Source of the DNA: Deinococcales bacterium
GTDB lineage: Bacteria > Deinococcota > Deinococci > Deinococcales > JAAFIG01
Length of the DNA stretch: 51,935 bases
Reading direction: 5' to 3'
Assembly (NCBI GenBank): GCA_031414595.1
Contig: JANNVX010000095.1
Coordinates: forward strand, 1 to 51,935
Positions 1-51,810 of this stretch are shown here, one piece after another. The translations under genes were made by a program, and so were the position numbers. The notes beneath the pieces are model-generated. The model was not told the origin of the DNA. It did no database searches and was given only the letters and a program-made list of their open reading frames with translations. How positions within the stretch are numbered: the stretch's first letter is position 1; the number at the start of each line of letters is the position of its first letter.

Positions 1-1
1 G

Positions 2-1462
2 AGCTTTGGCAAGTCTCGAGCTAAACAAGTCGAAAAACCAAGCACCACCTTCAAAGAAGTCGCGGGTTGCGATGAAGCCAAAGAAGAATTATCCGAAGTC
101 GTGGATTTCTTAAAAAACCCAACCAAGTACCACGACATCGGTGCAAGAATTCCCAAAGGGGTTCTCTTAATTGGTCCTCCCGGCAGTGGTAAGACACTCC
201 TAGCTCGAGCCGTTGCTGGTGAAGCTCGAGTACCATTTTTTACCATTAGCGGCTCAGACTTCGTAGAAATGTTCGTTGGTGTCGGCGCAGCCAGAGTCAG
301 AGACCTCTTCGAGCAAGCCCGTAAAACCGCACCGTGCATTATCTTTATTGATGAAATAGATGCCGTTGGTCGTAAACGTGGTTCTGGAATGGGTGGCGGT
401 AACGATGAACGCGAACAAACCCTCAACCAACTGCTTGTCGAAATGGATGGTTTTGAAACCAAACACGATATTATTATCCTTGCAGCCACCAATCGCCCAG
501 ATGTGCTGGATTCTGCCTTACTTCGCCCAGGTCGCTTTGATCGGCAAGTGACGGTAGATGCCCCAGATGTCAAAGGCAGAGAAGAAATCCTAAGAGTTCA
601 CTCGAGAAAAAAACCACTCGATGAAAGTGTTGACCTAAAAACCGTTGCCAAACGCACACCTGGTTTTGTTGGAGCAGACTTGGAGAACCTCTTAAATGAA
701 TCAGCCTTACTCGCGGCTCGAGGAGGCAGACGTAAAATCACGATGCGTGATATTGATGAAGCCGCAGACCGGGTGGTGATGGGAGCAGCTAGAAAGTCTC
801 GAGTGATACTGCTCGAGGATAAGTTGATTACGGCGTATCATGAAGTTGGACATGCGATTGCAGCACATTTACTGCCACTTTCGGATAGGGTACATAAACT
901 GACCATCGTGCCGCGTGGTGGAGCGGCTGGCTACATGATGCCATTACCTTCAGAAACCCAGCATTATGGCAAGAATCGGCTTTTAGATAGAATCGGTGTG
1001 GCATTGGCAGGACGAGCAGCCGAAGAACTGCAATTTGCTGAAATCACCACAGGGGCGCAAAATGATTTTCAGCAAGCCACACGAATTGCACGGCGGATGG
1101 CAGCCGAATGGGGCATGTCTGACCAACTTGGACATGTGGCACTGATTGAAGTCACCCAGAATTTCTTGGGCAATGCCAGTGAAAGCCGCTCCTACAGCGA
1201 AGAAACTGCCCAAGCCATAGATGCCGAAGTCAAAAGCATCATCGAAGTGCAGTATGTGCGGGTTAAGAATCTACTCGAGCAGAACCGCAACGCCATGGAC
1301 AGGGTAGTTGGTGTCTTACTCGAGCGTGAAACCTTAAACGGCGAGGAGTTCGCCACCGTTTTTGATGGTGGTTTGCTGCCCGAAGAACCACAAGACCCGA
1401 AGCCGAACCTCGAGCCGGGGTTTTCACCAGCCAATTTACTGCCTAAAATTGGTGGGGCTTAA
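2..1462 (+). CDS. ftsH: ATP-dependent zinc metalloprotease FtsH (5'-truncated by window edge)
   Basis: Walker A GPPGSGKT, Walker [37 protein letters not shown] zinc motif. The frame is open to the window start (SFGKSRAK...[11 protein letters not shown]). Confidence 0.97.
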
Positions 1463-1509
1463 GCAATTTGGCGCTGGTTGTTTTATGCTTCCAATCAGAT
1501 AATAAAGCC

Positions 1510-2238
1510 ATGAAATTCGAGTTTGTGCCGACTTTAGAAAAACTTCTCGAGGTCTACCGTGTACCCATCGGGCAGGCGCGTTTCGATGCCTATATTGCCG
1601 CTACGGTCGGCGGAGCGCAAAGCCGTGCAGACTTGGCATTGTTGCCGCTTGTCAGCGCCAACCCAATGGCAAAAGCACATCTCAATACTACCCTCGAGAC
1701 TTGGTTGGAACTTGGGGTAGACACGGCAACCCAAAAGATTGTGCAGTCACTCGAGCCAGTTTGGTCTTTGGATGTTGCTTACAAGGTTGGCTTGACACTA
1801 CTCGATAACCAAAAAGGCGGTTGGACAAATCGGTTTTTGAATGATTGGGAGTTTCGTTTTCCGTCTAAAATAAATCCCGATTGGATTGTTGTGCCGCTCT
1901 GGGTTTCTGAAGCCCCAAGTTTTGAAATTTTAGAAGTGGCAATTCGTGCAGCAGTGGCTCGAGTGGTTTGGCAATGGCAACATGGCGTGCCTCAAACCCT
2001 GCTCGAGATGCTGCACCAAGAAGGGTTTGCCCAGTCTTTTGCAGGGCTAAAACCAACTTTAGAGACCGATGACCTCGAGTACAGCCGTGTGGTGCTTGCC
2101 CCGTTTTTGCAGTCTGTCGAAAAACCTGTACAGTTTGCCTGTTTATTTGGCGATGCAGCGGCTCGAGAAGTGGGTTATGTGGCGCTAGGCTTATCGGCTT
2201 TTGCAGGGTTTGAAGTAGCACTTGTCGACTATAATTAA
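1510..2238 (+). CDS. Hypothetical protein, weak resemblance to DUF2268-type zincin C-terminal motif
   Basis: Long ORF. ATG 1510 lies 6 nt after GATAAT. Contains TLLEMLHQEGFAQSFA but no HExxH. Confidence 0.6.
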   Translation: MKFEFVPTLEKLLEVYRVPIGQARFDAYIAATVGGAQSRADLALLPLVSANPMAKAHLNTTLETWLELGVDTATQKIVQSLEPVWSLDVAYKVGLTLLDNQKGGWTNRFLNDWEFRFPSKINPDWIVVPLWVSEAPSFEILEVAIRAAVARVVWQWQHGVPQTLLEMLHQEGFAQSFAGLKPTLETDDLEYSRVVLAPFLQSVEKPVQFACLFGDAAAREVGYVALGLSAFAGFEVALVDYN

Positions 2239-2274
2239 GTCACCTCTCATCTGACAAAACGTTAAAATATCAGG

Positions 2275-4089
2275 GTGCAAAAACAGCAATTGCAACAGCT
2301 TTTTTCTATTTTACTAACGCTCAGCCTGATTCCTGCGCTGATTCTGGCTTGGCAACGGATTGCCTTTGAACGCAATTACAACATCGTCGGGCTAACCATA
2401 GATTACGGTGATGTGGTGCAACAAGCCCGAGAAAATGGTCTCGAGACCAATGACCTCTTAAAGCGCTATAAAGCCTTGGGGGTCAATGGTGTTTCGGTCT
2501 ATGAACCAAGTCTTGGGCGTTTGGTGCAAAACGACCTAGTGTTGTACCGAGAAGGAGCAGAATGGCGCAATCAACGTCTTAGTCTGCGTTTGGATGTCTC
2601 CGAGATTCGTTCCAGAGAATTTTATTTGCGCTCCTTAAAAGCGGGTGTAGCCGAGCGTTTTATGACCAAATATCAGTATCCAACCCGCCAAGTACAAATA
2701 GATGGACAGTTCTGGACAGCTTTCCCCCTAAATATTTTGGCTTTACCCGCCGGACCTGACTTAGAATTACATAGCGACCTCGAGGCACTAGGGTTTTATG
2801 TGGTTTATCGCCCATTTGAATCTGGGGCGCTGCGAGACCCCGGGGCGGATTTCCCCAAAGTACCTTTTGTGGTCTACGCTGGCGACGAAATTACAGGTAA
2901 TAGCACCGATCAAAAACGCCAAAAAATCATTGAACGCACCAAAAACACCATTACTGGCATGGTTGAAAGTGTCAAACAAGACGGACTCGAGGACATTATA
3001 AAACTCAATCCAACCGTGCGGGTTTTTGCAATTCCAACCGCTTGGCAAAAACGACTTGTGCCAGAAGAAGCGGCTAGTAAATTTATTTTAGCCGCAAGGG
3101 AACGCAATCATCGTCTGCTTTACTTGCGTCCCTATGAACGCATAGATGACAGCGAAACATTTTTTAAGGCTGTCTTGGCGGGTTTAGAACGAGCCGACCT
3201 AAAAGTTGGGCAACCCGTCGCCCTCGAGTTTACCCAAAATAGCCTACTGAAGAACCTGTCTTTTTTTGGAGCGTTGTTTGGCTTAGCGCTGTTTGCGACG
3301 CTTTTTCCGTGGTGGTGGCTTGGGGTCGCCACCACCCTTGGGGTGCTGGGCATTTCGGTATTCTTTGCTGGTTTTGGCGCAAAAGGCTTAGCTTTAAGTG
3401 CCGCATTGGTTTTTTCGGTGCTTGGTTTTGCTTTGGCTCGAGCCAAATTGCTTGACTGGGCAAGAGCCACTGGGATTACCGTCATGGGAGCGTTTTTTGT
3501 GTCTGCCCTTGGGGTTAGCCGCAACGAAGTATTGGCGATTGAACCTTTTGCAGGCGTGGGTTTGTTGTTGGTATTGCCGCCTGTATTGCTTGGTTTAACC
3601 ATGATTCCCAAGCAAGATATTCGTAAAACTATTCAAAATTTATGGAACACCCCAGTCAGCCTAGGTTTGATTGCTTTAATGGCGTTTGCAGCAGGCGCAT
3701 TAGCTATTATTGTCTTGCGGCGTGGCAATGATACTGGGGCTGGGATTTCAGAAGCCGAAGCCAAGGCTCGAGTTGCCGTTCAAGACAGTATTATCCGTCC
3801 GCGCAGCAAAGAACTGGCACTTCATGCCCCCGGGCTGGTTGGCTTAAGCGGCTTATTTCCAAGTTGGTTAAATAATTTGTTGCTGATGGCAAGTTCAATT
3901 GGGCAAGCCAGTATTATCGGCAGCTTCACCCATTTTCACACCCCGCTTTTAATTAGTTTATTGCGTACCATTAACGGTATTGCCATCGGCGGCGCAATTG
4001 GTTTTGCGGTGCTGGGCGTGGTCTGGTTTGGCAACACATTTTTTAGAAAGTGGCTCGAGGAGCAGAACAAAAGGTTGGAAAACTCATGA
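2275..4089 (+). CDS. DUF5693-like membrane protein (extracytoplasmic domain plus C-terminal multi-TM region)
   Basis: N-terminal TM helix, LAARERNHRLLYLRP, RPRSKE and SFTHFHTPLLISLLRT motifs, hydrophobic C-terminal half. Confidence 0.75.
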   Translation: MQKQQLQQLFSILLTLSLIPALILAWQRIAFERNYNIVGLTIDYGDVVQQARENGLETNDLLKRYKALGVNGVSVYEPSLGRLVQNDLVLYREGAEWRNQRLSLRLDVSEIRSREFYLRSLKAGVAERFMTKYQYPTRQVQIDGQFWTAFPLNILALPAGPDLELHSDLEALGFYVVYRPFESGALRDPGADFPKVPFVVYAGDEITGNSTDQKRQKIIERTKNTITGMVESVKQDGLEDIIKLNPTVRVFAIPTAWQKRLVPEEAASKFILAARERNHRLLYLRPYERIDDSETFFKAVLAGLERADLKVGQPVALEFTQNSLLKNLSFFGALFGLALFATLFPWWWLGVATTLGVLGISVFFAGFGAKGLALSAALVFSVLGFALARAKLLDWARATGITVMGAFFVSALGVSRNEVLAIEPFAGVGLLLVLPPVLLGLTMIPKQDIRKTIQNLWNTPVSLGLIALMAFAAGALAIIVLRRGNDTGAGISEAEAKARVAVQDSIIRPRSKELALHAPGLVGLSGLFPSWLNNLLLMASSIGQASIIGSFTHFHTPLLISLLRTINGIAIGGAIGFAVLGVVWFGNTFFRKWLEEQNKRLENS

Positions 4090-4721
4090 CCCAAGAAAGA
4101 CAAACCCGTATCCGAGCCGTTCTCGAGAAACGCCAACCCGATTTAACGGTGCTGCTTGAACATGTCCATAAACCCCATAATCTTAGTGCCATCCTACGTT
4201 CTTGTGACGCGGTTGGTTTACTCGAGGCGAACATTGTGGCACTCGAGGGTCGTCCACCAACCTTTAATGAAACCAGTGCTGGTTCGGATAAGTGGTTGCC
4301 GCTTGTGACCCACCAGAACACCGCCACCGCCTTCTCGAGCTTGAAAGAACGTGGCTTTAAGGTGATTGCCGCCCACCTCTCCTCTACTGCCCTAGATTAC
4401 CGAGCATGGGATTACACCCAGCCAACCGCGATTTTACTGGGCGCAGAAAAATGGGGGGTCTCGAGTCTGGCAGCCGACCTTTGCGATGCCCATATTATTA
4501 TTCCAATGCACGGTATGGTGCAGAGCCTAAATGTCAGCGTAGCAGCTGCGGTGGTACTTTTTGAGGCGCAACGTCAGAGGCTCGAAGCGGGAATGTATCA
4601 GACCTCAAGAATCAGCCCTGAAGAATTTGCACGTCTCGAGTATGAATGGCTCTACCCGCGTGAAGCTGAGATTTTTCGGGCAAAAGGCGAAGCCTACCCA
4701 AGACTTGAAGTACAGCAGTAA
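4086..4721 (+). CDS. trmH: tRNA (guanosine(18)-2'-O)-methyltransferase TrmH
   Basis: SPOUT motifs HKPHNLSAILRSCDAVG, GAEKWG, IPMHGMVQSLNVSVA. ATGA overlap with the upstream gene. Confidence 0.93.
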   Translation: MTQERQTRIRAVLEKRQPDLTVLLEHVHKPHNLSAILRSCDAVGLLEANIVALEGRPPTFNETSAGSDKWLPLVTHQNTATAFSSLKERGFKVIAAHLSSTALDYRAWDYTQPTAILLGAEKWGVSSLAADLCDAHIIIPMHGMVQSLNVSVAAAVVLFEAQRQRLEAGMYQTSRISPEEFARLEYEWLYPREAEIFRAKGEAYPRLEVQQ

Positions 4722-4780
4722 AAAGCCTTGGGGTATTAAAAGGCTACCTTGTCGCAATAACATCACCAGCGCTTTAACCT

Positions 4781-5905
4781 TTAATCCCCTCGTATGACCT
4801 TGCCAATTTTACTCAAGAACCCTTCTGGTGGGACGATACTCTCACCTGTTTCTTTGGCGTACTCCTCAAGAAGTTCCTTAGCCCGCTTAGAGAGTTTTTT
4901 CGGCACACTAACCGCCACTGTGACAATTAAATCACCTTCACCTCTGGCTTGTAAACGCGGCATTCCTTTGCCTCGTAAATGCAGCGTATCGTTGGGTTGT
5001 GAACCATGTGGAATCTCGAGGGCGTGTGTGCCATCGAGGGTTGGAATCTCGAGTTTTGTACCTAGGCTGGCTTGGGCAAGTCCAATATGGGCAGTGTAAT
5101 GCAGATTATCGCCGTCGCGGGTTAAGTGGACGTGCGGTTTTAATTCTAGAAATACGTATAAATCGCCAGCCGGACCACCGAACATTCCAGCATTGCCCTG
5201 ACCCGCGACACGCAAACGATAGCCGCCATCAATACCTTTAGGCAATGTAACCGTGACTTTTTCGGGTTTGATGGTACGCCCACGCCCGTGGCACTTGCTG
5301 CATGGTTCGGGGTTAATTTCGCCTGTACCTTTGCAAGTCTGGCAAGGCGCAGCCGTCATAAAATTACCCAGAATGGTGCGTTGCTGTTGCCGCACTTGCC
5401 CAGCCCCACCACAAGTACCACAGGTTTGTAAGCCCTTGCCACCCGGTTCGGCTCTCGAGCCATGACAACGGTCACAACCAATCAGCTTATCAATTTCAAC
5501 TTCGATGTCCGCCCCAATTCGGGCTTGCTCGAGCGTAATGCTGACTTCAACTTGTAAATCCTCGCCTCGAGCCGCCCGTTTGCCACCTCGAGCCGCGCCG
5601 CGTTGCTGCCCAAAAATATCACCACCGAAGACACTGTTGAATAAATCAAATAAGTCCCCGCCAGCCCCACCAAAATTCGAGTCAAAGCCAGCCCCGCCGA
5701 CCTTGCCAAATTGGTCATACTGGGCGCGTTTTTCGGGGTCAGATAAAGCACCATAAGCCTCATTGATGGTCTTGAATTTCTCTTCGGCTTCTTTGTTGCC
5801 GGGGTTCTTATCGGGATGGTATTTTAGTGCCAAAGCCCGATAGGCACGTTTAATTTCGTCGCTGTCAGCAGTTCTCGAGACTCCAAGTAAATCGTAATAA
5901 TCCAT
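4781..5905 (-). CDS. dnaJ: Chaperone DnaJ
   Basis: J-domain with HPD, G/F-rich region, four CxxCxG zinc motifs. Start 5905 (MDYY) is preferred because ATG 5920 overlaps a TATAAT box. Confidence 0.96.
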
Positions 5906-5992
5906 AAAATCGAGTGGCATTATACAACCAGACTCAAGGTTTCATAGTGCCGAATAGTCATGTGTGTTTGTGCGAATGTGCTATTGTGCATT

Positions 5993-6301
5993 ATGCCAAA
6001 GACCAATTCCAATGTAAAAACCATCAGCCTCGGCGGACAAATCTCACTCGGTAAAAAATATGCTGGGCAGCAAGTGTTGGTTGAAAAAATCGAAGAAGGA
6101 TACTGGACAATCAAAACTTCGATTACCATTCCAACCAACGAAAAATGGCTCTGGGAAGAACCGTTTAAAAGTCAATTGGACACTTCGTTGCGTGAAACTG
6201 CCAAACGTTACGCCAATGGTCGGCAACCAAAACTTATCACACTCGAGGAATTAGAAACAAAATACCTTGGCACTCAAGAAAAGGTCAGTAATGCCGATTG
6301 A
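5993..6301 (+). CDS. Putative antitoxin, AbrB/MazE-like N-terminus
   Basis: GQISLGKKYAGQQVLVE pattern. Small gene overlapping a RelE-like gene. Confidence 0.65.
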   Translation: MPKTNSNVKTISLGGQISLGKKYAGQQVLVEKIEEGYWTIKTSITIPTNEKWLWEEPFKSQLDTSLRETAKRYANGRQPKLITLEELETKYLGTQEKVSNAD

Positions 6302-6584
6302 ACTTGATCTAAACGACACTGGTTTTCAACGCCAAATGGTGAGTCTCGAGAAAAACGAAAGCCTTGCCTTCTTCAAAACCCTCCGAAAACTGCTTCAACT
6401 CGAGTGGGAAACTGTCTACCGCGACAGGGGGTTAAACTGGGAGGCTATTCAATCCAAAACCGACGATGATGGCGAACGGCTCTACAGTCTTCGAGTCACC
6501 GAAAAATGTCGTGCTGTGGTACAAAGACGCGGCAATCGAATGGTTTTTCAAGGACTCTACCCAGACCACGACAGCGCCTACTAA
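6291..6584 (+). CDS. Putative RelE/ParE-superfamily toxin
   Basis: 97 aa, LYSLRVTEKCRAVV and C-terminal DHDSAY, overlapping the upstream small gene. Confidence 0.65.
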   Translation: MPIELDLNDTGFQRQMVSLEKNESLAFFKTLRKLLQLEWETVYRDRGLNWEAIQSKTDDDGERLYSLRVTEKCRAVVQRRGNRMVFQGLYPDHDSAY

Positions 6585-7330
6585 ACCGCCCTCGTTGGCA
6601 ATGGCACAATCGCCCCTGAACTCGGGTCAAGCCCAATCCACACTTCAACCCCGTACAATTCGCGCAGCAAAGACTGATTCAGCACCTCGAGCGGTGTGCC
6701 ATCTGCCACAATTTGGGAATTCCCAAGCGCAATGACACGGTTTGCCCGAGCAGCATAGGGAATATCATGGGCAATAAAAACCACACATGCCCCAGCCGAG
6801 GCACGAATTTGTAGCGTCTCGAGCAAGCGCATTTGATAACGTGGGTCAAGCCCAGCCAGAGGTTCATCCAAAAGTAAAATCGGGGTAACTCGAGATAAAG
6901 TCATGGCGAGCCAAGCGCGTTTGGCTTCGCCAGTCGATAATTGCGTAATTGGCTGCTCGAGTAAATCCTCGAGTTCCATTGCCGCAATTGATTCAAAAAA
7001 ACCAGTTTCAGAAGGCTCAGCCAGTAAAATCAGTTCGCGCACCGATAAGGGAAACGGAACACTTGAGTAGGCGGGTAAAAAAGCCAGTTTTGAGGACACC
7101 AAACCTTTAGTCAGTCCGCGAATATCTGTCCCTTCGAGCAGTACAGACCCGTCTGAATGCCCAAGTTCTCGCAAGCCCGCCAAGGCTGCCAGCAAGGTGC
7201 TTTTACCTGCCCCGTTCGCACCAATAATCGCCGTCACTTCGCCAGTTCTAAACTCGAGATTGACGTTTTTTATAATCACTCGGGAAGTACGGCGGATGGT
7301 TAGGTTTTGGGCAGTTAGAGGATAGGTCAT
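6581..7330 (-). CDS. Iron-complex/cobalamin ABC transporter ATP-binding protein
   Basis: GANGAGKS, LSTGE signature, LLLDEP, H-loop. AAGGA upstream of ATG 7330. Confidence 0.9.
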   Translation of the reverse strand: MTYPLTAQNLTIRRTSRVIIKNVNLEFRTGEVTAIIGANGAGKSTLLAALAGLRELGHSDGSVLLEGTDIRGLTKGLVSSKLAFLPAYSSVPFPLSVRELILLAEPSETGFFESIAAMELEDLLEQPITQLSTGEAKRAWLAMTLSRVTPILLLDEPLAGLDPRYQMRLLETLQIRASAGACVVFIAHDIPYAARANRVIALGNSQIVADGTPLEVLNQSLLRELYGVEVWIGLDPSSGAIVPLPTRAV

Positions 7331-7362
7331 ATTTTCCTTGTGGAGCATACCTTGAAAAATTG

Positions 7363-7380
7363 GACATTTTGTCCTAAAAT
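7363..7380 (+). promoter_or_regulatory. Palindrome GGACA-TTT-TGTCC next to a TAAAAT -10 box; probable HigA operator/promoter
   Basis: Seen directly upstream of higB. Confidence 0.5.
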
Positions 7381-7383
7381 GAA

Positions 7384-7698
7384 ATGGTGAATATCATCGC
7401 TCCAAAAGCCATTCGGGATTTTGTTCAGCGATACCCAGAATCGGATCAAGTCCTGCGTGATTGGTACAACACCCTAAGAAAATCCGAATTCCAAAACTGG
7501 GCAGAACTTAAAGCCACCTTCTCGAGCCTTGACCTTATCCCAAATCAACAAAATGGGTTACTGGTGGTTTTTGACATTGGTGGAAATAAATACCGTGTGG
7601 TGGTCAAAATGGATTTACAAAGCAATTTCGCCATGATTCGCCATATTTTTACGCACAACGAATACATGATTTGGAATAAAAAAGGAAAACCATCATGA
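7384..7698 (+). CDS. higB: HigB-family toxin
   Basis: W..FAELKATF-like segment and VFDIGGNKYRVV...IFTHNEY motifs. Toxin-first gene order. Confidence 0.88.
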   Translation: MVNIIAPKAIRDFVQRYPESDQVLRDWYNTLRKSEFQNWAELKATFSSLDLIPNQQNGLLVVFDIGGNKYRVVVKMDLQSNFAMIRHIFTHNEYMIWNKKGKPS

Positions 7699-8099
7699 AC
7701 ATTTCTACTCAAAAAGCCATTGAATCTTGGACAGGACTCTACAGTGCTAACATTCGCAAACCCGAAAGCGAGGAAGAATACCTCGAATTACTCGAATTTA
7801 TGAATCACTTAACCGACCATTATAACACTGACCTCGAGCCACACAAAGGACTATGGAATTTGGTAGCGCAATTTATGTTTGAATGGGAACAAGCCAATGA
7901 ACCAAAAATTCCTGAATCTGAACCACATCAAATTCTGCTTTTTTTGATGCAGCAACATCACCTGAAAGCAAAGGATTTCAAAGACAAAATAGACCAGAGT
8001 TTACTATCAAAAATCCTATCTGGTAAACGAAAAATTAGTAAGCAAGTGGCACGAATATTAGCAGAACGCTTTCAAACAACCCCAGCTTTGTTTCTATGA
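7695..8099 (+). CDS. higA: HigA-family antitoxin (C-terminal HTH)
   Basis: SEEEY motif, LLSKILSGKRKISKQVARILAERF, ATGA overlap with higB. Confidence 0.88.
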   Translation: MNISTQKAIESWTGLYSANIRKPESEEEYLELLEFMNHLTDHYNTDLEPHKGLWNLVAQFMFEWEQANEPKIPESEPHQILLFLMQQHHLKAKDFKDKIDQSLLSKILSGKRKISKQVARILAERFQTTPALFL

Positions 8100-8115
8100 A
8101 GCCAGCATCAAAACA

Positions 8116-8158
8116 ATTACGAAGCCCGTCTCGAGGCGATTACGAAGCCTGTCTCGAG
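8116..8158. repeat. 20-bp near-perfect tandem duplication ATTACGAAGCC(C/T)GTCTCGAG
   Basis: Copies at 8116-8135 and 8139-8158. The second copy covers the permease stop codon. Confidence 0.9.
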
Positions 8159-9153
8159 AGAACCATCAACCAAATCCCGCCCAGCACTGTGGTAAATGCC
8201 CCAGCTGGAATTTCATTAGGGGCTAGTAAAGTACGCCCAAGCACATCGGCTAGGCTAACCGCAATCCCGCCAATTAAGGCACTGGCTGGAAGTAATTTTT
8301 TGTAATCTGTACCAAATAATGCTCGAGCTAAACTGACCGATAATAAGCCGACAAAGCCCATTAAGCCACTTGTTCCGACCGCCACACCCGTTAAAAGCGC
8401 TGCCAGCATCAGCACCAGATTTCTCGAGACTTTGGCATTTAAGCCTAGGTTCTCGGAGACATCATCGCCAAGTTGCAATAAATTTGCAGTACGCCCAAGC
8501 AGCATTGCCAGACCGATGCCAAAAGCCGCAAATGGCAGCATCAGCCAGAGTTGACTTAAACCAAGCGCATAGAACCCACCGACCACCCAGCCCAGTACAT
8601 TGGCACTCGAGGGGCTTTGTGACAATGCCAGCATCAAGGCTAACCCCGCGAGGCTGATGGCAGCCAGTGCCACACCGATTAAAGCCCGCCGCTCCGAGGA
8701 GCGTTCCGAAGAAAGCTGTGTCAGTAACCAAACCGCAAAGCCAGCCCCCATACTGGCAAGCACTGGCGTTCCAAACCCCGCCATGCCAATTTGTTGCAAT
8801 AAAACTGCGCCCAGCGCCGCAAAGCCCGCCAAGCCTAGCAAGTACGAATCCGCCAAACTGGTTCTAAAACCCGCCTGTAAGAGTGGTCCTGTCATCCCTA
8901 GGCTTGCGCCAACCAAGAGTGCCAGAAAAACCCTTGGCGCTCGAACCTCGGATAAAATTTGGGCGGCGGTTGTATCAGCTTGACCAACCACCCAAGCCAG
9001 TAAAGTCTGCCCCGAAATCGGATACGAACCAAGCGCCAAGGAAACACCCAACGTAGCCAGTAAAACCAGACCCAGCGTCACAAACCATAAGACACTCGAG
9101 CCATGTTGATGACTCGAGACTCGAGAAAAAAGAATTGGTTTAGGAGTAGTCAC
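8140..9153 (-). CDS. FecCD/BtuC-family ABC permease
   Basis: RAPRVFLALLVGASL, LGDDVSENLG, GLMGFVGL, ADVLGR, EIPAG motifs. Confidence 0.92.
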   Translation of the reverse strand: MTTPKPILFSRVSSHQHGSSVLWFVTLGLVLLATLGVSLALGSYPISGQTLLAWVVGQADTTAAQILSEVRAPRVFLALLVGASLGMTGPLLQAGFRTSLADSYLLGLAGFAALGAVLLQQIGMAGFGTPVLASMGAGFAVWLLTQLSSERSSERRALIGVALAAISLAGLALMLALSQSPSSANVLGWVVGGFYALGLSQLWLMLPFAAFGIGLAMLLGRTANLLQLGDDVSENLGLNAKVSRNLVLMLAALLTGVAVGTSGLMGFVGLLSVSLARALFGTDYKKLLPASALIGGIAVSLADVLGRTLLAPNEIPAGAFTTVLGGIWLMVLSRQAS

Positions 9154-9177
9154 AATAATAAACTGTCATGCAGGCTA

Positions 9178-9202
9178 AGGAGACCACAAGGGTCTCCCCT
9201 AC
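9178..9202 (-). repeat. GTAG-type REP palindrome GTAGGGGAGACC-CTTGT-GGTCTCCT
   Basis: GTAG tetranucleotide followed by a hairpin, intergenic between the binding-protein and permease genes. Confidence 0.7.
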
Positions 9203-9210
9203 TTTTTAAC

Positions 9211-10113
9211 TTATTTTCTAGGGTAAAGAAGCGGGATTAAAATGTCCAGTGTTTCTACCGCCCTTGGTCCTGGAGCGGTCACAAACGGGTCGGAACTGAG
9301 GATATGGACACGGTTATTTTTAACAGCATTGAGGTTTTTCCAAGCAGCACTCTGCTCTAAACGCTCGACTGGGCTTGGCGCAATAGCCCCAGTCGCGGTG
9401 ACTGCCCTGAACGCCACAATTACATCGGGATTGGCTGCTACAATCTGCTCTAAACTTAAAACCACAAAACCGGGTTGACGTGGGTCAGCACTTGGCGTGC
9501 CTTTGGCGACATTGTTTGCCCCAGCCTTCTCGAGCAGGTCGCCAATATAGGTTTCGTCGGTGGTGCTAAAAACTTGTCCACCCGCCGCTAGCAGCGCCAA
9601 GACTTTGGGTTTTACAGCTTTTGGAACTTTAGCAAGACTGCGTTTGATTTTAGATTTTAGGAAATCCAAACGGGCTTGGGCGTAGGCTTCGCGGCTGGTC
9701 AGTTTCCCAAAAAGTGTGTAGGTGTCGTAAACATCTTTGAGGCTCGAGTCTGGGGTAACGATTAGCGGCATCGGTAATGCCCCAAGTTGACGCGCCGAAG
9801 CAGCCGTTGTGCCAACAGAACCAATCAGTAAGTCTGGGCGTAAACCAAGAATTTTTTCTAAATCTGGACGGTAAGCACTGCCGACTTCCGGAATCCGCAG
9901 GGCGGTATCTGGATGGGTGGCACTGCTGGGGCGACCAATTGGATTAGCACCAATATCTATTAGAATTTCGGTGGCGGTTAAAGACAACGCCACAATCCGT
10001 TTGGCGGGTGCATTGATGGTCAAGCTACGACCAAGACCATCACGAATTTGAATAGGAGCGGCAAGGGCAAGTCCTGCCAGCAAAGCAGAACCAAGAAACA
10101 TCATTTTTTTCAT
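9211..10113 (-). CDS. BtuF/FhuD-like ABC substrate-binding protein
   Basis: Signal peptide, DGLGRSLTI..PAKRIVAL, PDLEKILGLRPDL, AVKNNRVH, PGPR. GAGG upstream of ATG 10113. Confidence 0.9.
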   Translation of the reverse strand: MKKMMFLGSALLAGLALAAPIQIRDGLGRSLTINAPAKRIVALSLTATEILIDIGANPIGRPSSATHPDTALRIPEVGSAYRPDLEKILGLRPDLLIGSVGTTAASARQLGALPMPLIVTPDSSLKDVYDTYTLFGKLTSREAYAQARLDFLKSKIKRSLAKVPKAVKPKVLALLAAGGQVFSTTDETYIGDLLEKAGANNVAKGTPSADPRQPGFVVLSLEQIVAANPDVIVAFRAVTATGAIAPSPVERLEQSAAWKNLNAVKNNRVHILSSDPFVTAPGPRAVETLDILIPLLYPRK

Positions 10114-10293
10114 ACAAACCTCGAGAAGAATAAGAACCGAAAAGCAATACAACCCAGCATTCAGGTTTTTAATCGCCTGAATGTCCCATTAAAACGCTAG
10201 ATTTAAGCAAAAGTGTCACAAAAGTGTTGACTCTCTACACTACTTGTCTCGAGTCATTGTTCTGTCACTTTTCTGATTTAATTTGTCAGTAAC

Positions 10294-11796
10294 ATGAGAT
10301 TTTGGGTTGTAGTTTTTTGCTGTATTGGTTTTTGTTACGCTTCCTTGGCATTTGCCCAACTCGGCACAGCGTACAAAGCCCAGCATGGTTGGGGTTTACC
10401 GCGTAGCATTGCTACCTCGAGCATCACCCAAGGTGTGGTGGTAGATTCAAAACGCCTGATTGTGGCAGAAGCAATTGGTTTAGAGCAACGGGATTTATCT
10501 GGGCAAAATCCTAAGTTGCTGTTCACTCAATCTGGAATTCGTGATTTACAAGGGGCTGGTACGTCCACTAATTTGGCGCTGGCTTGGTATCGGCGCGACA
10601 CCCTTAACCCCAACGGTTTGTGGTGGTGGTTCAAAGGACAGGCTACTCTTGCGCTCGAGACTCCTTACACCGATTTCGCCTTGCTCGAGATGGCAAATAA
10701 ACCCGTGCTGATTGGTGTTGCCCAACAAGGTGAATTGACTGGGGTGGTAATCCAGTTTTGGAATGAAAAACCAAAAACCATTTTTCAAACCAAACTGAAC
10801 GTTGGGGCATTGGCAGCAAATAGTGTGGCGGGGCGAATCGGGATTGTGTTTGCTGAAGGTTTTCGCAATGGTCAGGACGAAAAGTACGACCTGCGTTTTT
10901 TGCAAGTATCCAACATAGAAAAGAATTTACCTGATGTGCAGTCTGCGCTACTTGCACCAGCCGTCTATCTTGGGCGCGGTCAGCGTTTTGGGGTGGCAAG
11001 CAAAGAAAATCAGTTCTTGCCGATTTGGTGGTACGAAACCCCTGAAGAACAACGCTTAGGTGCATTTACCAAACAACACAATCCGCGTTTGGCTTTGTTT
11101 GAGGCTGGCAAAATCATTGAATTTGCCCCGCCTACACCCTACCTTGGTCAAATTGGCAAGGCGCTGTATTACACCATCAAGGATCAAATCATCAGCTATA
11201 ACCTTGAAACCAAGCTGACTCGAGTAGAAATTACTGCTCCTGCTGGTTTTTCCAGTGCTAACCTCTCGAGCCAAGGTCTTCTGGCTTGGCAAAGTGTAGA
11301 ACGCGATGGGTTTAGCAGCCAGTTATGGTTGGTGGATTCAAATCAGCCGTTTAGCCCAAGTTTGATTGACCAAATTTCTAAGGTTTTGGGTTGGAATCCT
11401 TGGTTTCCTGCACAGAACTTTTTTGGGCAAACTGCCCTGTCGCTGATGTTAGCAGCCTTGGCAGTCTTGCTGGTTGCCCCGTTTGTCTGGTTGCTCCGAG
11501 GGCGTTTTGACTTTGGACAAGGCACTTGGTTTGGGATGGTTTGTGCTTGGGTGGTACTGCTTGGTGGGCGGATAGCAGGTAGTAGTTTTAATGCTAGTAA
11601 TTGGATTTTTGCGCCGCTCCTGAATGCCTCTTGGCTGATTGTGCTGCTTGGTGTGGCTGTGGGTAGTGGTTTGGTGTTCTGGCAACGCAAGCGCTTAAAT
11701 GGAACAGAACTTGGGGCGACCATTGCTGCAAGTTTGGTAGTGCTGGTGGGAACATTTATAACAGTTTTCTCGAGAATTGGGTTTTTACGATTCTAA
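10294..11796 (+). CDS. Hypothetical protein: signal peptide, beta-rich extracytoplasmic domain, ~4 C-terminal TM helices
   Basis: 500-aa ORF and its hydropathy pattern. Confidence 0.7.
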   Translation: MRFWVVVFCCIGFCYASLAFAQLGTAYKAQHGWGLPRSIATSSITQGVVVDSKRLIVAEAIGLEQRDLSGQNPKLLFTQSGIRDLQGAGTSTNLALAWYRRDTLNPNGLWWWFKGQATLALETPYTDFALLEMANKPVLIGVAQQGELTGVVIQFWNEKPKTIFQTKLNVGALAANSVAGRIGIVFAEGFRNGQDEKYDLRFLQVSNIEKNLPDVQSALLAPAVYLGRGQRFGVASKENQFLPIWWYETPEEQRLGAFTKQHNPRLALFEAGKIIEFAPPTPYLGQIGKALYYTIKDQIISYNLETKLTRVEITAPAGFSSANLSSQGLLAWQSVERDGFSSQLWLVDSNQPFSPSLIDQISKVLGWNPWFPAQNFFGQTALSLMLAALAVLLVAPFVWLLRGRFDFGQGTWFGMVCAWVVLLGGRIAGSSFNASNWIFAPLLNASWLIVLLGVAVGSGLVFWQRKRLNGTELGATIAASLVVLVGTFITVFSRIGFLRF

Positions 11797-12840: not shown

Positions 12841-12849
12841 GGAGCTTTT

Positions 12850-14540: not shown

Positions 14541-15683
14541 ATGTCATTACCATTAGGCTTTCGCGCAGGAGCAACCAAGGCTGGGATTAAACCATCTGGC
14601 AAAACAGATTTGGCACTGCTGGTCAGTAATTCAGCCTGTACATGGGCGTACTCGGGGACAACCAACCGTGCGGCTGCGCCGTGTGTGACCCGTAACCGCC
14701 ATTTACTCGAGTCCGAACTGCCTGTGCAAGCGATTGTCGTCAATGCGGGCAACGCCAATTGTGCTACTGGTCAAGTGGGTATCGAAACCAACCAGCGCAT
14801 GGCAGAAGTCACGGCTTTACAAATCGGTCTTCCAGCCTCGAGTGTGATTACCGCCAGCACAGGGGTAATTGGTGTACCGTTACCCGTCGAAAAAATCGAA
14901 TTGGGTTTACCCAAGATTACTTTGGCGCTTGACCTCGAGCCGTTTGCGCTTGGCATCATGACCACCGATTTAGTGCCGAAAACCGCGTCTGTGGTTCTGT
15001 CCAATGGGGCAAAAATCGTAGGGGTTTGCAAGGGCAGTGGCATGATTGCACCAAACATGGCAACGATGTTGGCGTACATTGTCTCAGATGCGGCTGTCTC
15101 TCAACTCGAGTTACGACAGTCTTTTCAGGGGATTGTTGAAGGCAGTTTTAACCAAGTCACGGTGGACACCGATACCAGCACCAACGACATGGCATTGCTG
15201 CTTTGCAACGGAGCGGCGGGAGCAGTGGATTTAACTGAATTCTGGCAGGGTGTGGAAACTGTGGCGGTCTCGCTGGCAAAACAACTGGCAAGGGACGGCG
15301 AAGGGGCAACCAAACTCTTGACGGTGCAGGTTATTGGCGCTCGCAACGACTTCGAGGCTCGAGAAGCCGCCCTAAGTGTGGCTGCCAGTCCACTCTGGAA
15401 AAGCGCAGTCTATGGCAACGACCCAAATTGGGGTCGAATCATGATGGCAATTGGCAAGTCTAGGGCTTTTTTTGAAACCACCACAGTACAAATTGCTTTG
15501 CAAAAGACGGTTTTGTTTAACGGTGCAGTTCTCGAGTTTGACCGCACTGCGGTGAGTGCTGCCATGAAAGCCGAAGAGGTTGTGGCGGCAATTGATTTAC
15601 GTCAAGGCACTGGAACGGGTACGGCTTGGGGTTGTGACCTGACCGAAGAATATGTGAAAATCAATGCCGAGTACACCACCTAA
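14541..15683 (+). CDS. argJ: Bifunctional glutamate N-acetyltransferase/amino-acid acetyltransferase ArgJ
   Basis: [46 protein letters not shown]-terminal INAEYTT. Confidence 0.96.
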
Positions 15684-27820: not shown

Positions 27821-29170
27821 ATGAACAAGAAGCTGTTGACGGCATTCGGTTTAGGTGCATTGGCGCTCGGAGCAATGTTTGCTTCGGCACAAAGTAGTCG
27901 CACCAAAGTCACTTGGTTCGTGGGGGTGGGAACGGGTGGACAACCCGACCAGATCGAAGCCGAGAAAGCGGCTGTAGCACGCTACAATAAGGGTCAAGAT
28001 AAAATCGAATTGATTCTCGAGATTGTCGAATACAACTCGGCTCGAGATAACCTCTCGGCTCGAATTGCAGCTGGTAATGCGCCAGACATCGTAGGTCCTG
28101 TCGGGACACAAGGCGCAAACTGGTTCAAAGGTCAATTTATTGACATGGATCCTTTGATTGCTAAGTTCAAACCAGACCTTAAGGGTATTGATGACGGACT
28201 CTTAAAGTTCTACAAGGAATCACAAGGCGGCGAAGGTTTGCCTTACGCTGTTTACCCGAGCTTCTTCTTTTACAACAAAGCACTGTTCAAGGAATCTAAG
28301 TTGCCAGACTTGCCAAGCAAAGTTGGCGAGAAATACCGTGGTCGGACTTGGGATTGGAACGAAGTTCGTCGTTTAGGTATGGAACTGACCTTTGATAACA
28401 AAGGCAACAATGCCGCTTCTGCGAATTTTGACTCCAAGAACATCGAAACATATGGTTTTATCAATCAATGGAACTTGGGAATTACCTCGATGGGTACGGC
28501 ATTTAAGCCAGCTAATGTTTTTCAAAATGGCAAAGCCGTAATAGACCCAGAATGGGTTAATGCGATTCGTTACTACCACAATGGCATTTGGAAAGATAAA
28601 TTTATGCCAAGCCAAGCCGCCATGGACACCGATTTGCTCGGACGTGGAAACGCCTTTAACTCTGGCAATGTAGCAATGGCATGGACACACTTGTGGTACA
28701 CCTGCTGCTTAGACCCTGCCGGAACTGGCAAAGTCAAGGATTGGGGCGTGGCGGTCATGCCAAGCTACAAAGGCAAGACTGTTGCTAAACTGCACGCCGA
28801 TACCTTCCGCATCATGAAAGGCAGTAAAGTCAAAGAGGAAGCCTTCCAAGCGATGTGGTGGATTATGAACCAAAAAGACCTTTTGGTTACTTACGGCGCT
28901 TTCCCAGCTGACGAGGACTTGCAAGACGATTACATTGCTGCCGTCAACAAAAAATATGCACCCGTTAAAATCAATTGGAGTGTTGTTAAAGAAATGCTCA
29001 AATACACCGACACCCCAAGCCACGAACAATACTACCCAAACTTTACCAAAGTGGATGACATCTTCGCAAAACTTGCCACCAAAGTCCTGACCCAACCAAC
29101 CCTAAACATCAGCCAAGAAGTCAGCAATACCCAAAAAGAAATCCAACGCGCTTTTGACGAAAAGAAATAA
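27821..29170 (+). CDS. Carbohydrate ABC transporter substrate-binding protein
   Basis: AGGAG RBS, signal peptide, IAAGNAPDIV, LPYAVYPSFFFYNKALF, FNSGNVAM. Confidence 0.92.
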   Translation: MNKKLLTAFGLGALALGAMFASAQSSRTKVTWFVGVGTGGQPDQIEAEKAAVARYNKGQDKIELILEIVEYNSARDNLSARIAAGNAPDIVGPVGTQGANWFKGQFIDMDPLIAKFKPDLKGIDDGLLKFYKESQGGEGLPYAVYPSFFFYNKALFKESKLPDLPSKVGEKYRGRTWDWNEVRRLGMELTFDNKGNNAASANFDSKNIETYGFINQWNLGITSMGTAFKPANVFQNGKAVIDPEWVNAIRYYHNGIWKDKFMPSQAAMDTDLLGRGNAFNSGNVAMAWTHLWYTCCLDPAGTGKVKDWGVAVMPSYKGKTVAKLHADTFRIMKGSKVKEEAFQAMWWIMNQKDLLVTYGAFPADEDLQDDYIAAVNKKYAPVKINWSVVKEMLKYTDTPSHEQYYPNFTKVDDIFAKLATKVLTQPTLNISQEVSNTQKEIQRAFDEKK

Positions 29171-29192
29171 GACCTTCTTCGCTCCTCCTCCG

Positions 29193-29217
29193 CCTCCGCG
29201 CCCTTAAAGCGCGGAGG
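29193..29217 (+). terminator. GC-rich intercistronic hairpin after the binding-protein gene
   Basis: CCTCCGCGC-N7-GCGCGGAGG with no T tract, so more likely mRNA-stabilising than terminating. Confidence 0.55.
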
Positions 29218-29239
29218 TCAGTTCAAAAATAGGATGTGT

Positions 29240-30166
29240 ATGCTTTTAGACGATAAAAAGAAATTCTTAAGTTTAGAGCGGGTCGAACAGCGTTGGGGTT
29301 GGTTTTTTTTAGCACCTTGGCTGCTTGGCTTATTATTATTTACGGCTTTCCCAATGCTTGTATCTTTGGTTTTGGCATTCACCAATTATAATTTGGTGAC
29401 CGATGAACCAACACGATTTGTTGGTCTTAAAAACTGGGTTTCGATGGTTCAAGACCCTCAAACGCAAAGTGCGTTTATGAACACCCTAAGATATATTTTG
29501 ATTGTTGTGCCACTTTTAATTCTTAGCCCACTGGTTTTAGCGCTGTTCTTAAATGCCAAACCACTTTGGCTTAAAGGCTTTTTTATCACTTTGTTTTTTT
29601 TGCCAAACCTGATACCGGGCGTGGTGACTGGTTTAATTTGGGCTGGAACGCTTTCGCCCACGGGGACAGTCAATCGTTTTTTACAAGGCTTTGGAATTAC
29701 CCCGCCAGCTTGGTTGACCGAAGCCGCTTGGGTCATGCCAGCCATTGCCATTATTGGTTTATGGAGCATTGGCAATACCATTTTACAATTGATTGCCGCC
29801 CTAAAAAATGCTCCCAAAGAATTATATGAAGCCGCCACGATAGACGGTGCAAGTTCAATCACGATGTTTTTTAGAATCACTATTCCCTTGATGTCATCGG
29901 TTTTGTTTTTTAATGTAATCACTTCGATTATTGGTGGATTTCAGTATTTTGTGGTCAGTTTTTTACTTTTTAATGGACAAGGCGGACCAAACGACGCGGG
30001 AATGTTCCTGATGTTGAAAATTTTTAAGGAAGCCATCACCTACCGCAACATGGGTTATGCCTCGGCAATGTCATGGGCAATGTTACTGATTACACTGCTG
30101 ATTACCCAAGTCTTGTTTGCTTTGGGTAAACGATTTGTGTTTTACGCCGGAGAGGAACGAAAATGA
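29240..30166 (+). CDS. Carbohydrate ABC permease (MalF-like)
   Basis: FVGLKNW, ELYEAATIDGAS..FFRITIPL, MGYASA. Start is 29234 or 29240. Confidence 0.93.
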   Translation: MLLDDKKKFLSLERVEQRWGWFFLAPWLLGLLLFTAFPMLVSLVLAFTNYNLVTDEPTRFVGLKNWVSMVQDPQTQSAFMNTLRYILIVVPLLILSPLVLALFLNAKPLWLKGFFITLFFLPNLIPGVVTGLIWAGTLSPTGTVNRFLQGFGITPPAWLTEAAWVMPAIAIIGLWSIGNTILQLIAALKNAPKELYEAATIDGASSITMFFRITIPLMSSVLFFNVITSIIGGFQYFVVSFLLFNGQGGPNDAGMFLMLKIFKEAITYRNMGYASAMSWAMLLITLLITQVLFALGKRFVFYAGEERK

Positions 30167-31242
30167 GCTTAGTTATCCCAAAAGTGAGAACCCAAACGGT
30201 ACAACGTCAAAATCAACGGATATGGCGCTCGAGAATTGTTTCGATTCTGGTAACCGCCCTGATTGCTTGGACGGCTTGGGTTTTTTTAACCCCATTTTAT
30301 GAACAACTGAATGCCAGTCTAGGTGCAGCTTCTCGAGAACCCGGGCAGCCATTTGGTCCGTATGTCGGACAGATTTTTAACTATCAGAACCAAGAATTAA
30401 AAATCTATAACGTGCCAATCAATGGCTCAACCCAGCAACTTGCGCTGCTCGAGCCGGGTCGTACCAGCAGTGTTTTTATTGACCCTAAAAATCCAAATAC
30501 CCCTATTACTTACGAAGGCTCTTACCGTGCTTTAGAGCGGCTCTGGACTTTTAGCCCTCGTTTTTCTAATTATGTGGAAGCCTGGGATCGTTTGCCCGGT
30601 GGTTTTGTGCGTGGTTTAAGCAACACTTTTATTATTGCGGGCTTAAGTACCCTGGGGGTTTTGATTAGTTCTACTTTTACGGCGTATGGTTTGGCACGTT
30701 TTAATATGCCCTATAAAGACTTTTTACTTGGTCTAGTGACAGTTACTTTAATGCTACCGACAGTGGTTTTGTTTGTGCCGCAATATATTCTTTTTTTTAA
30801 GATAGGTTGGGTCGGGACATGGTTACCTTTGATTGTGCCATCGTTTTTTGGCAGTGCTTATAGTATTTTCTTATTGCGCCAATTCTTCTTAGCCATTCCT
30901 AAAGAGTTTGATGAAGCTGCCAAAGTAGACGGTGCAAACCCATTGCAAATTCTTTGGTTTATTTTACTGCCTTTAATCCGCCCAGCTTTAATTGCTGTGG
31001 CAATACTACATTTTATCTTTGTCTGGAACGATTTTTTCTACCCGACCTTGTACTTGGCTGGTAAAACCGATTTGATGCCTGTATCGGTCTTGATGCGGAT
31101 GTTTAGCTCGAGTTACGGCAGCAGTACCCCACATCTGATTTCGGCAGCTGCCGTGATTGCTACAGTTGTACCAATGGTTTTATTTTTAATCGCCCAGCGT
31201 CCTTTTATTCGAGCCATCACCATGCCGGGGTTAGACAAATGA
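30163..31242 (+). CDS. Carbohydrate ABC permease (MalG-like)
   Basis: AYGLARF, FLLRQFF, EFDEAAKVDGA, WNDFF. Confidence 0.93.
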   Translation: MSLVIPKVRTQTVQRQNQRIWRSRIVSILVTALIAWTAWVFLTPFYEQLNASLGAASREPGQPFGPYVGQIFNYQNQELKIYNVPINGSTQQLALLEPGRTSSVFIDPKNPNTPITYEGSYRALERLWTFSPRFSNYVEAWDRLPGGFVRGLSNTFIIAGLSTLGVLISSTFTAYGLARFNMPYKDFLLGLVTVTLMLPTVVLFVPQYILFFKIGWVGTWLPLIVPSFFGSAYSIFLLRQFFLAIPKEFDEAAKVDGANPLQILWFILLPLIRPALIAVAILHFIFVWNDFFYPTLYLAGKTDLMPVSVLMRMFSSSYGSSTPHLISAAAVIATVVPMVLFLIAQRPFIRAITMPGLDK

Positions 31243-51148: not shown

Positions 51149-51421
51149 TCAGTTGTATACATTTTTCCTGTTTCCAATTCGGTCAATCATCAGAACCCGT
51201 TTCTCGAGCGTAAACACAACACGGTACTGACCAACCCGTAAGCGCAAATACCCCGCTAAATTCCCTTTGAGGTAGGCAATGTCGCCTTCTCCTGTATCGC
51301 GTAAACGCATTAAAGCCTCAAGCAGTGCTTGTTTGGTTGCTGCATCCAAACCCAAGAATTGCTGTTCAGCAGCCTTAGACAATTCCACCGTAAAAGGCGG
51401 ATTTGGTAGGCGGGCGCTCAT
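51149..51421 (-). CDS. RelE/ParE-family toxin
   Basis: VELSKAAEQQF, GDIAYLKG, RLRVGQYRVVF, IGNRKNVY. Confidence 0.9.
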   Translation of the reverse strand: MSARLPNPPFTVELSKAAEQQFLGLDAATKQALLEALMRLRDTGEGDIAYLKGNLAGYLRLRVGQYRVVFTLEKRVLMIDRIGNRKNVYN

Positions 51422-51648
51422 GCTTTTGGCAACAGCGTATTAAGTGGAATTGTGGCTTGACCAGCTAAACGGGCTGCTTGGCTTTGTAGTACCTCAGATT
51501 CCTCGAGCGGGTCGTGTGGTTCAGTATCAGCTTGAATACCCAAACGCTCAAAAGCAGTTCGCAGTGCATCGGCTTGACTGACATTAAAAACAGTTCGGTA
51601 TGCCTCGAGTAAATCGTAGACATCATCTGGTATCTCGAGGGTTTTCAT
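51418..51648 (-). CDS. Antitoxin (ribbon-helix-helix-like)
   Basis: MKTLEIPDDVYDLL...SQADALR. TATACT lies 6 nt before ATG; ATGA overlap with the toxin gene. Confidence 0.8.
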   Translation of the reverse strand: MKTLEIPDDVYDLLEAYRTVFNVSQADALRTAFERLGIQADTEPHDPLEESEVLQSQAARLAGQATIPLNTLLPKA

Positions 51649-51678
51649 GGCGCAAGTATACTCGATTTTTGCAGATAC

Positions 51679-51761
51679 AAAAAAGCGCCTCAAGATTAAC
51701 TCTCGAGGCACAATAATTCAAACAATATAATCTAGGTTTATTCCTTGATGTTTGAGTGCAA
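51679..51761 (-). terminator. 16S trailer and terminator (direct repeat copy B)
   Basis: Hairpin GCCTCAAGA-TTAAC-TCTCGAGGC with a T run on the minus strand, ~100 nt after the 16S 3' end. Confidence 0.75.
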
Positions 51762-51810
51762 TAAGCAGTTACCTCGAGCATTAAATCTCGAGCCAACTTT
51801 GAGAACTCCT

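Follow-up and report, generated by a model that had tools for sequence, protein, structure and literature searches.

A hyper-iterated CTCGAG palindrome in the genomes of an uncultured Deinococcales family

The stretch of DNA analysed here (the window) is the whole of contig C95, 51,935 bases long, of the genome G000, a metagenome bin of 4.49 Mb in 120 contigs with a guanine plus cytosine (GC) content of 47.2% and an estimated completeness of 94%. The window is ordinary chromosomal DNA, with genes that include those for FtsH, DnaJ, ArgJ, a prephenate dehydratase, ABC transporters, glycoside hydrolases and a sigma factor; it is also strewn with the six-base palindrome CTCGAG, the subject of this report. 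A pattern search recovered 250 copies of this word (Table 1), against 5.89 expected from 100 dinucleotide-preserving shuffles (standard deviation 2.53, maximum 13), with 9-28 copies in every 4-kb bin. An earlier note on this DNA had counted about 58 copies by hand in the first 10 kb, had called the word frequent through most of the window and had pointed to a tandem occurrence near position 9111. The search returns exactly 58, shows a single long gap in the series, and places the two copies of the tandem, which is real, at 9113-9118 and 9120-9125. Such pairs, spaced 7 bases apart, number 101 across the genome (79 of them in genes), and because their flanking sequence is different in every one they are not a repeat family. 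The long gap lies in a sugar ABC-transporter operon, and the aligned DNA of three relatives (G001, G003 and G004) is likewise without CTCGAG. The nucleotide identity of this stretch to G003, 84%, is above the window average of 78%.

Table 1. Features of the window referred to in the text (positions count from the first base of the window)
Feature	Positions	Strand	Remarks
Field of CTCGAG sites, n = 250, 4.8 per kb	1..51787	.	Pattern search; last site 51,787
CTCGAG pair, 7 bases apart	9113..9125	.	Pattern search
argJ, six CTCGAG sites (14706, 14837, 14934, 15105, 15358, 15531)	14541..15683	+	Test case for amino-acid change
CTCGAG-free stretch, 2,187 bases: 3' part of sugar-binding protein gene and permease gene	28047..30227	.	
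16S rRNA gene 3' end, last ~122-125 bases, cut by the contig end, no CTCGAG	51814..51935	-	RF00177, 80.9 bits

The abundance of CTCGAG extends to the entire genome. G000 contains 23,235 copies, one per 193 bases, where base composition predicts 971, and the observed/expected ratio of 23.9 is the highest of all 4,096 hexamers; the runners-up, at about 7, are one-base shifts of CTCGAG itself, and the best unrelated words reach about 4. All 120 contigs carry the word, at 2.3-8.6 per kb, and its density is flat across the starts and ends of genes. Nor is CTCGAG one enriched palindrome among several, a doubt that the earlier note had itself raised: the next-best palindromic hexamer, CAATTG, attains 2.15, and of the 64 such words 58 fall below 1. 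G000 otherwise shuns palindromes, like genomes rich in restriction systems. Several palindromes are nearly absent from it (TGCGCA with 2 copies, GGCGCC with 3, GAGCTC with 6, and the RTCGAY words with 26-89 copies each), GGCC and GATC stand at 0.01 and 0.14 of expectation, and GAGCTC is limited to 0-25 copies in 16 of the 19 genomes of the family defined below. The over-represented word is exactly six bases long, the positions flanking it in G000 being near background composition, and 69% of all TCGA in this genome lies inside CTCGAG. The first flanking bases are non-complementary at 79-81% of sites, and since the flanks pair no more often than chance CTCGAG is not the core of longer hairpins. 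A dispersed repeat, such as a miniature inverted-repeat transposable element or a repetitive extragenic palindromic element, was considered as the source and ruled out, given the near-background flanks, the lack of an extended palindrome and the different flanks of all close pairs.

To place G000 in context we compared it with related genomes of the order (the other G numbers). The family to which it belongs comprises 19 genomes in five genera of uncultured Deinococcales, and 82 further genomes of the order lie outside it; the genomes are metagenome bins, most of them 57-94% complete, and one family member, G013, is closed in a single contig. CTCGAG occurs at 4.3-6.8 per kb in all 19 family genomes and across all five genera, with 23,515 copies in G013. 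Beyond the family, genera g6, g13, g21, g22, g23 and g24 have 1.4-3.1 per kb, and a Thermus-like genus has about 0.7-1.1 per kb, close to its GAGCTC control. Genus g7 (21 genomes) is strongly depleted, with 40-942 copies per genome; all these figures for genomes beyond the family are plain densities or counts, not corrected for GC. As the 19 genomes were binned separately, mis-assembly is a very unlikely cause, and we have little doubt that CTCGAG is a real, lineage-wide hyper-iterated palindrome of this uncultured family. A search of viral contigs for three CTCGAG within about 100 bases gave no host-like one (about 47% GC, without GAGCTC) among the 80 loci scored of the matches listed; these 80 loci are mostly of 64-72% GC and often rich in GAGCTC too, an effect of codon usage at high GC.

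The word is not a consequence of the coding content of the genome. Using 3,776 heuristic gene calls (open reading frames combined with a codon-usage score, covering 87% of the genome), we found CTCGAG in all three coding frames genome-wide, as the earlier note had seen in the window. There are 12,049 genic sites in the frame CTC-GAG, which encodes Leu-Glu and accounts for 60% of the genic total, 3,882-3,892 in the frame xCT-CGA-Gxx and 4,172-4,182 in the frame xxC-TCG-AGx. A further 3,126 sites lie outside gene calls, where the density is 5.38 per kb vs 5.14 per kb within genes, and in intergenic DNA the observed/expected ratio is 29.5. The contention that the word is not just codon bias is borne out by a synonymous shuffle, which leaves 1,973 (standard deviation 34) of the 20,138 genic sites; shuffling the order of codons leaves 934 of the 20,138, and redrawing codons with the usage seen outside the word leaves 743. 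Even when dicodons are preserved, the enrichment does not vanish in the two frames other than that of Leu-Glu, with 2,247 and 1,968 sites expected against 3,892 and 4,182 observed; in the Leu-Glu frame this shuffle is not a fair test because it keeps the sites by construction.

The word also leaves its mark on the proteins. Leu-Glu is the most over-represented dipeptide of G000 (20,138 vs 9,054 expected), the excess being about equal in size to the number of CTCGAG sites in that frame, and 60% of Leu-Glu pairs are written CTCGAG, though outside the word these are minor codons, CTC at 8% for Leu and GAG at 21% for Glu. Ser-Ser is raised 1.5 times. The argJ gene of the window, with its six sites, was taken as a test case, and we aligned 30 orthologues from across the order, 10 from the family and 20 from other families. 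At five of the six sites the orthologues of the Thermus-like genus g9 encode other residues (YA/HA, PE/VE, AE/AD/AG, EA/GA/ET and LP/LS), and CTCGAG is found in g9 at none of the six; at the remaining site an Ala-Arg pair is unchanged but is written with the rare codon CGA. At codon 132 (position 14934) every one of the 10 aligned family orthologues has CTCGAG, while the 20 orthologues of other families all lack it. Family members have 4-9 CTCGAG per argJ, across argJ GC contents of 46-67%, vs 0-1 in the Thermus-like genus. Thus, CTCGAG has been created at the cost of both codon choice and amino-acid sequence. A separate peculiarity of ArgJ is that the protein of this genus is 67-70% identical to those of genera g13 and g22, which belong to another family, vs 57-60% identical to those of the other genera of its own family, a pattern that suggests gene transfer or an unusual tree. 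The tRNA genes of G000 are poor in the word, with 7 copies in 5,310 bases vs 27.5 at the genome density. Five tRNAs in one cluster (C56:144-2,945) each have a CTCGAG, and just two others of the 68 in the genome do.

Comparison with close relatives revealed that the sites are retained at the level of the DNA. The window was aligned to seven genomes of the same genus, with frame-matched control hexamers providing the expectation; all counts of conservation, gain and loss given here come from this single 52-kb window. Conservation in relatives, a check proposed in the earlier note, exceeds expectation in all seven genomes: 189 of 211 sites are kept in G005 (151 expected), 148 of 165 in G001 (104), 107 of 128 in G004 (71), 126 of 170 in G003 (46 expected, at 78% identity), 72 of 106 in G007 (23), 23 of 37 in G006 (7) and 12 of 28 in G002 (4). 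In the comparison with G003, CTC keeps its third base in 79 of 86 cases inside the word vs 40 of 67 outside it, and GAG does so in 81 of 90 vs 46 of 103, so that synonymous third positions are 90-92% kept in the word vs 45-60% elsewhere; the other four genomes agree. Few non-coding sites can be aligned, and these are kept 12 times out of 15 in G005 and in none of 3 cases in G003. Other hexamers are lost at two to four times the rate of an existing CTCGAG, synonymous positions included. Differences between close relatives are mainly single transitions (TTCGAG, CTTGAG, CCCGAG). When G000, G003 and G007 are compared, 49 sites are found in all three, 14, 31 and 31 respectively are confined to one genome, and 18, 10 and 17 respectively are absent from just one. 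Thus, CTCGAG is held at the DNA level, yet its positions turn over between species.

The arrangement of sites along G000 is not that of a random scatter. Neighbours less than 10 bases apart occur at 0.13 of expectation and those 10-20 bases apart at 0.53; spacings of 50-200 bases exceed it, at 1.2, and those of 400-1,600 bases stand at about 0.84. The spacing has a three-base periodicity and, with the long island gaps set aside, a coefficient of variation of 0.93, a mild under-dispersion. Gaps of more than 1.6 kb number 30 vs 5 expected, and most of them are of 32-42% GC. The six that we annotated contain a polysaccharide-synthesis island, a clostripain-like peptidase, a polymorphic-toxin/immunity pair, an ABC-3C defence pair, an NOV_C protein and three open reading frames of no known family. 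Such contents are typical of accessory DNA, here probably of recent acquisition. One CTCGAG-free, low-GC islet (C14:37,049-40,257) encodes a PT-HINT polymorphic-toxin protein; an immunity-like gene of the SUKH family and three small family-less open reading frames come after it.

The earlier note had proposed that this lineage has its own highly iterated palindrome (HIP), perhaps maintained by a CTCGAG/TCGA methylase and biased repair, and had called for a search for an XhoI/TaqI-type methylase. The former part of this proposal stands, in that the hexamer is exact, genome-wide, family-wide and held at the DNA level; the latter finds no backing, as neither an XhoI nuclease nor a family-wide methylase was found. 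Of the 82 non-family genomes 5 have a member of the XhoI nuclease family (PF04555), whereas a search of the 19 within the family found none. The nuclease gene of G031, which is broken, follows one for a 583-residue methylase of the Eco57I/TaqI_C type (locus G031:C1:1093829-1096226), and relatives of this methylase with 43-54% identity occur in six other non-family genomes (G030, G042, G074, G070, G067 and G053). No family genome has a protein of this XhoI-linked type above 27% identity, the best matches being at 27% in G009 and at 26% on contig C89 of G000. In six of the seven genomes with the XhoI-linked methylase CTCGAG stands at 1.7-3.1 per kb and in G053 at 0.8, figures that are not normalised for GC or phylogeny; there are hints here of a methylase link outside the family.

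Methylases in general are plentiful in G000, with 8 of the N6_N4 type above the cut-off, about 8 of the Eco57I type and 5 C5 enzymes, and two of these have TaqI-like specificity domains. However, none of the candidates has the distribution of the word. TaqI_C domains occur in 6 of the 19 family genomes vs 13 of 13 genomes of the Thermus-like genus. The methylase at C4:28798-30789 (MerR, N6_Mtase and TaqI_C) was rejected as the CTCGAG enzyme, being found in only 2 of the 18 other family genomes, as was that at C32:33973-35442, a type I HsdM beside HsdS and HsdR with a patchy distribution and its best match outside the family, and that of C89 (Eco57I and TaqI_C), a contig of only 2 kb, whose identity to the XhoI-linked type is 26%. 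Among the broader classes, no N6_N4 methylase was detected at E <= 1e-8 in the closed G013 or in G002 and G014, and no C5 methylase (PF00145) was found in G010. The N6_Mtase and D12 families are present in 5 of 5 sampled genomes but are heterogeneous, and two D12 groups of G013 and G011 were set aside as candidates, having only a 26% match in G000. Vsr was not found in G000. The density of CTCGAG in the methylase genes themselves, considered as a clock of their residence in the genome, does not discriminate (1.3-8.8 per kb). A methylase of unrecognised type, or several unrelated lineage-specific ones sharing the same specificity, could conceivably be encoded, judging from these sequences.

The one-base variants of the word offer another view of this question. 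In intergenic DNA, on an order-3 background, the one-transition variants TTCGAG and CTTGAG are enriched (2.2 and 1.51 times expectation), and the transversion variants stand at 0.7-1.6 times expectation. A drain of one-base variants into CTCGAG was considered and abandoned, as the raw genome-wide depletion of transversions disappears with that intergenic background. Sorted by position, the observed/expected ratio of intergenic one-base variants is 1.79 at positions 1/6, 0.89 at 2/5 and 1.17 at 3/4.

Some other features of the window touch on the assembly. The ftsH fragment at 1-1,416 has a paralogue 88% identical at C57:1-1,413, and the first 133 bases of the window recur identically at C98:1-133 and C100:1-133; as this ftsH-end sequence recurs at several contig ends, the repeat breaks the assembly there. 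A search of the whole genome with the same Rfam family gave no match to 16S rRNA, despite the 16S 3' end in the last 122 bases of the window, a piece too short to inform taxonomy. The intergenic stretches at 39,318-39,517 and 19,715-19,853 have several copies of 81-98% identity on other contigs of G000 or in close relatives and are probably small dispersed repeats. No match to positions 1-20,000 of the window was found in a plasmid collection.

Among known systems, CTCGAG most resembles HIP1 (GCGATCGC) of cyanobacteria and its alternate HIPs, which likewise are short palindromes over-represented tens of times in genic and intergenic DNA, conserved within clades and of unsettled function. Published figures put HIP1 at 15- to 300-fold over-representation (PMC5861425), or at 300-2,700 copies per Mb with observed/expected ratios of 55-228 (PMC4390886). 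The word described here differs in being another sequence in another phylum, six rather than eight bases long and denser, at 5,176 per Mb, and CGATCG, the inner hexamer of GCGATCGC, has 3 copies in G000; it is an analogue of HIP1, not HIP1 itself. Genomes with HIP1 generally have GATC and CGATCG methylases, and unrelated methylases share the CGATCG specificity in cyanobacteria (PMC4390886), whereas no cognate methylase common to the clade was found in the CTCGAG family. The restriction-modification systems XhoI and PaeR7I recognise the very same word, but the nuclease and its linked methylase type, as noted above, were not found in the 19 family genomes, and restriction normally leads to avoidance of a word, as in genus g7, and not to its enrichment. 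In E. coli, Dcm methylation with very-short-patch repair by Vsr raises CCWGG, a case in which a repair bias over-represents a methylated palindrome. The situation here is unlike it, with no Vsr in G000, no C5 methylase found in G010 and no depletion of CTTGAG, the product of deamination. The uptake signal sequences and DNA uptake sequences of Pasteurellaceae and Neisseriaceae are also lineage-specific, frequent in coding and non-coding DNA and able to shape the proteome (PMC2817400). We found no report of bacterial over-representation of CTCGAG in the full-text literature, a coverage that leaves out subscription journals; a term search of Elhai's survey (PMC4390886) returned neither CTCGAG nor Deinococcus, and the sole match for CTCGAG as an over-represented word is a study of the honey bee genome (PMC3903499).

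From the above observations we infer a preference in these cells for DNA bearing CTCGAG. It is powerful enough to prevail over codon choice and at many amino-acid positions and to preserve the sites that exist, yet it permits their turnover and has left islands of foreign DNA without the word. It is hardly credible that the word is a passive by-product of codon or dipeptide usage, of a dispersed repeat or mobile element, or of assembly or library preparation. The Leu-Glu frame does hold 60% of genic sites, and CTCGAG and its reverse GAGCTC are both common in high-GC relatives and phage contigs, as expected from codon usage; however, codon-preserving shuffles remove 90-96% of the sites, non-coding DNA is equally dense, the flanks are random, GAGCTC has only its 6 copies in G000, and separately binned genomes have CTCGAG positions in common. 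The explanation that we rank first, and hold tentatively, is the recombination-signal part of the earlier idea: CTCGAG may be a "self" word, possibly recognised by the machinery that handles incoming or recombining DNA. If that machinery read the word, natural transformation and homologous recombination would spread word-bearing alleles through the population, a molecular drive that could proceed with or without benefit and without a dedicated conserved methylase. By analogy with the uptake sequences, a drive of this type, combining biased uptake with recombination, would explain the accumulation of CTCGAG, its turnover and its scarcity in foreign DNA. HIP1, for which the like was lately proposed, lends the idea some precedent, as recent work reports that it raises the efficiency of transformation and may act both at uptake and as a Chi-like site (10.1101/2024.09.10.611283), and that its abundance tracks pilus and competence proteins while methylases failed a phylogenetic correlation test (PMC13756078). 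Several points weigh against the "self" word. The known uptake signals are asymmetric and 9-12 bases long, those of Pasteurellaceae and Neisseriaceae occurring roughly once per kb, and the uptake of DNA by Thermus and Deinococcus in culture is regarded as non-selective. The ComEC channel domain is present in 18 of the 19 family genomes and also in 10 of 14 control genomes; as ComEC is nearly universal in bacteria, its presence discriminates nothing. The transformation effect of HIP1 in cyanobacteria is itself methylation-dependent (10.1101/2024.09.10.611283), and with no conserved methylase found here the analogy is incomplete. The present observations bear on uptake and recombination at most indirectly, the link being a proposal, and selection at each site for another function would yield the same conservation, turnover and spacing. 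Further, within the subclade of G000, polarised with G003, clean losses number 28 vs 8 clean gains (small counts); of 524 ancestral sites the terminal branches have lost 47, at 0.47 of the neutral rate, vs 10 gains, and the rate of gain per one-transition precursor is 1.8 times background, from 4 events. The creating force is hence at present weak or absent in this subclade, though retention continues. The subclade also has the lower density (4.8-5.2 per kb vs 5.9-6.4 in G003, G006 and G007), in keeping with the dominance of losses. A narrower version of the "self" word, which we consider rather doubtful, would have the transformation or recombination machinery read CTCGAG directly, without methylation, the strength of the drive differing between sister lineages, with net gain in G003 and G007 and net loss in the subclade of G000.

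Two further explanations follow it in rank. In the methylase-directed repair that Elhai proposed for HIP1, CTCGAG or its TCGA core would be marked, and methylation-dependent mismatch repair would convert near-matches and protect existing copies. HIP1 and the alternate HIPs usually come with a matching methylase, and their one-base deviations favour the outer positions (PMC4390886), which recalls the intergenic variants of CTCGAG, best tolerated at the outer position and hinting at a TCGA core. The many methylases of G000, two of them with TaqI-like specificity domains, and the 0.8-3.1 CTCGAG per kb of the six non-family genomes with the XhoI-linked type of methylase also speak for it. However, no methylase common to the family was found, whether XhoI-linked, with TaqI_C, of the C4 or C32 kind, or of the N6_N4, C5 or D12 classes; G000 has no Vsr; the one-transition variants are not drained; and the cyanobacterial methylases did not correlate with HIP1 in the phylogenetic test already mentioned (PMC13756078). 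Taken together, these points make repair of this type unlikely. About as improbable, in our estimation, is a function at each site, whereby CTCGAG would bind an abundant chromosomal protein (in nucleoid organisation, replication, repair or the marking of "self" in defence) so that a dense and even array would be of use in its own right. Such a function accords with retention well beyond neutral expectation, synonymous positions included, with the avoidance of very close neighbours, the excess of 50-200-base spacings and the coefficient of variation of 0.93, with the flat density over gene starts and ends, and with the age of some sites, that at codon 132 of ArgJ being of the same age as the family. 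On the other side, there is no known candidate for a reader protein, none was found here, and the accessory islands manage without CTCGAG. As positions turn over between species at similar density, a pressure on the whole genome is a better fit than a requirement for individual sites.

Whatever its cause, the word has consequences for these organisms and for their study. HIP1 has gone unexplained for thirty years, and all study of it has been confined to cyanobacteria. The present case, independent of it and denser, makes of HIP1 a class open to comparison: gene families that accompany such a word in both phyla become candidates for the mechanism, and, as no conserved methylase was found here, methylation is arguably not the core that the two have in common. 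Digestion of the family's genomes with XhoI is extreme. As the islands lack CTCGAG, the word marks foreign DNA, and as it biases codon usage and the amino-acid make-up of proteins, both phylogenetics and binning by composition are affected. If transformation or recombination did rely on direct reading of CTCGAG, this would be the first six-base palindrome to serve as a signal for uptake or recombination, and its drive would have been strong enough to add roughly eleven thousand Leu-Glu pairs to a single proteome.

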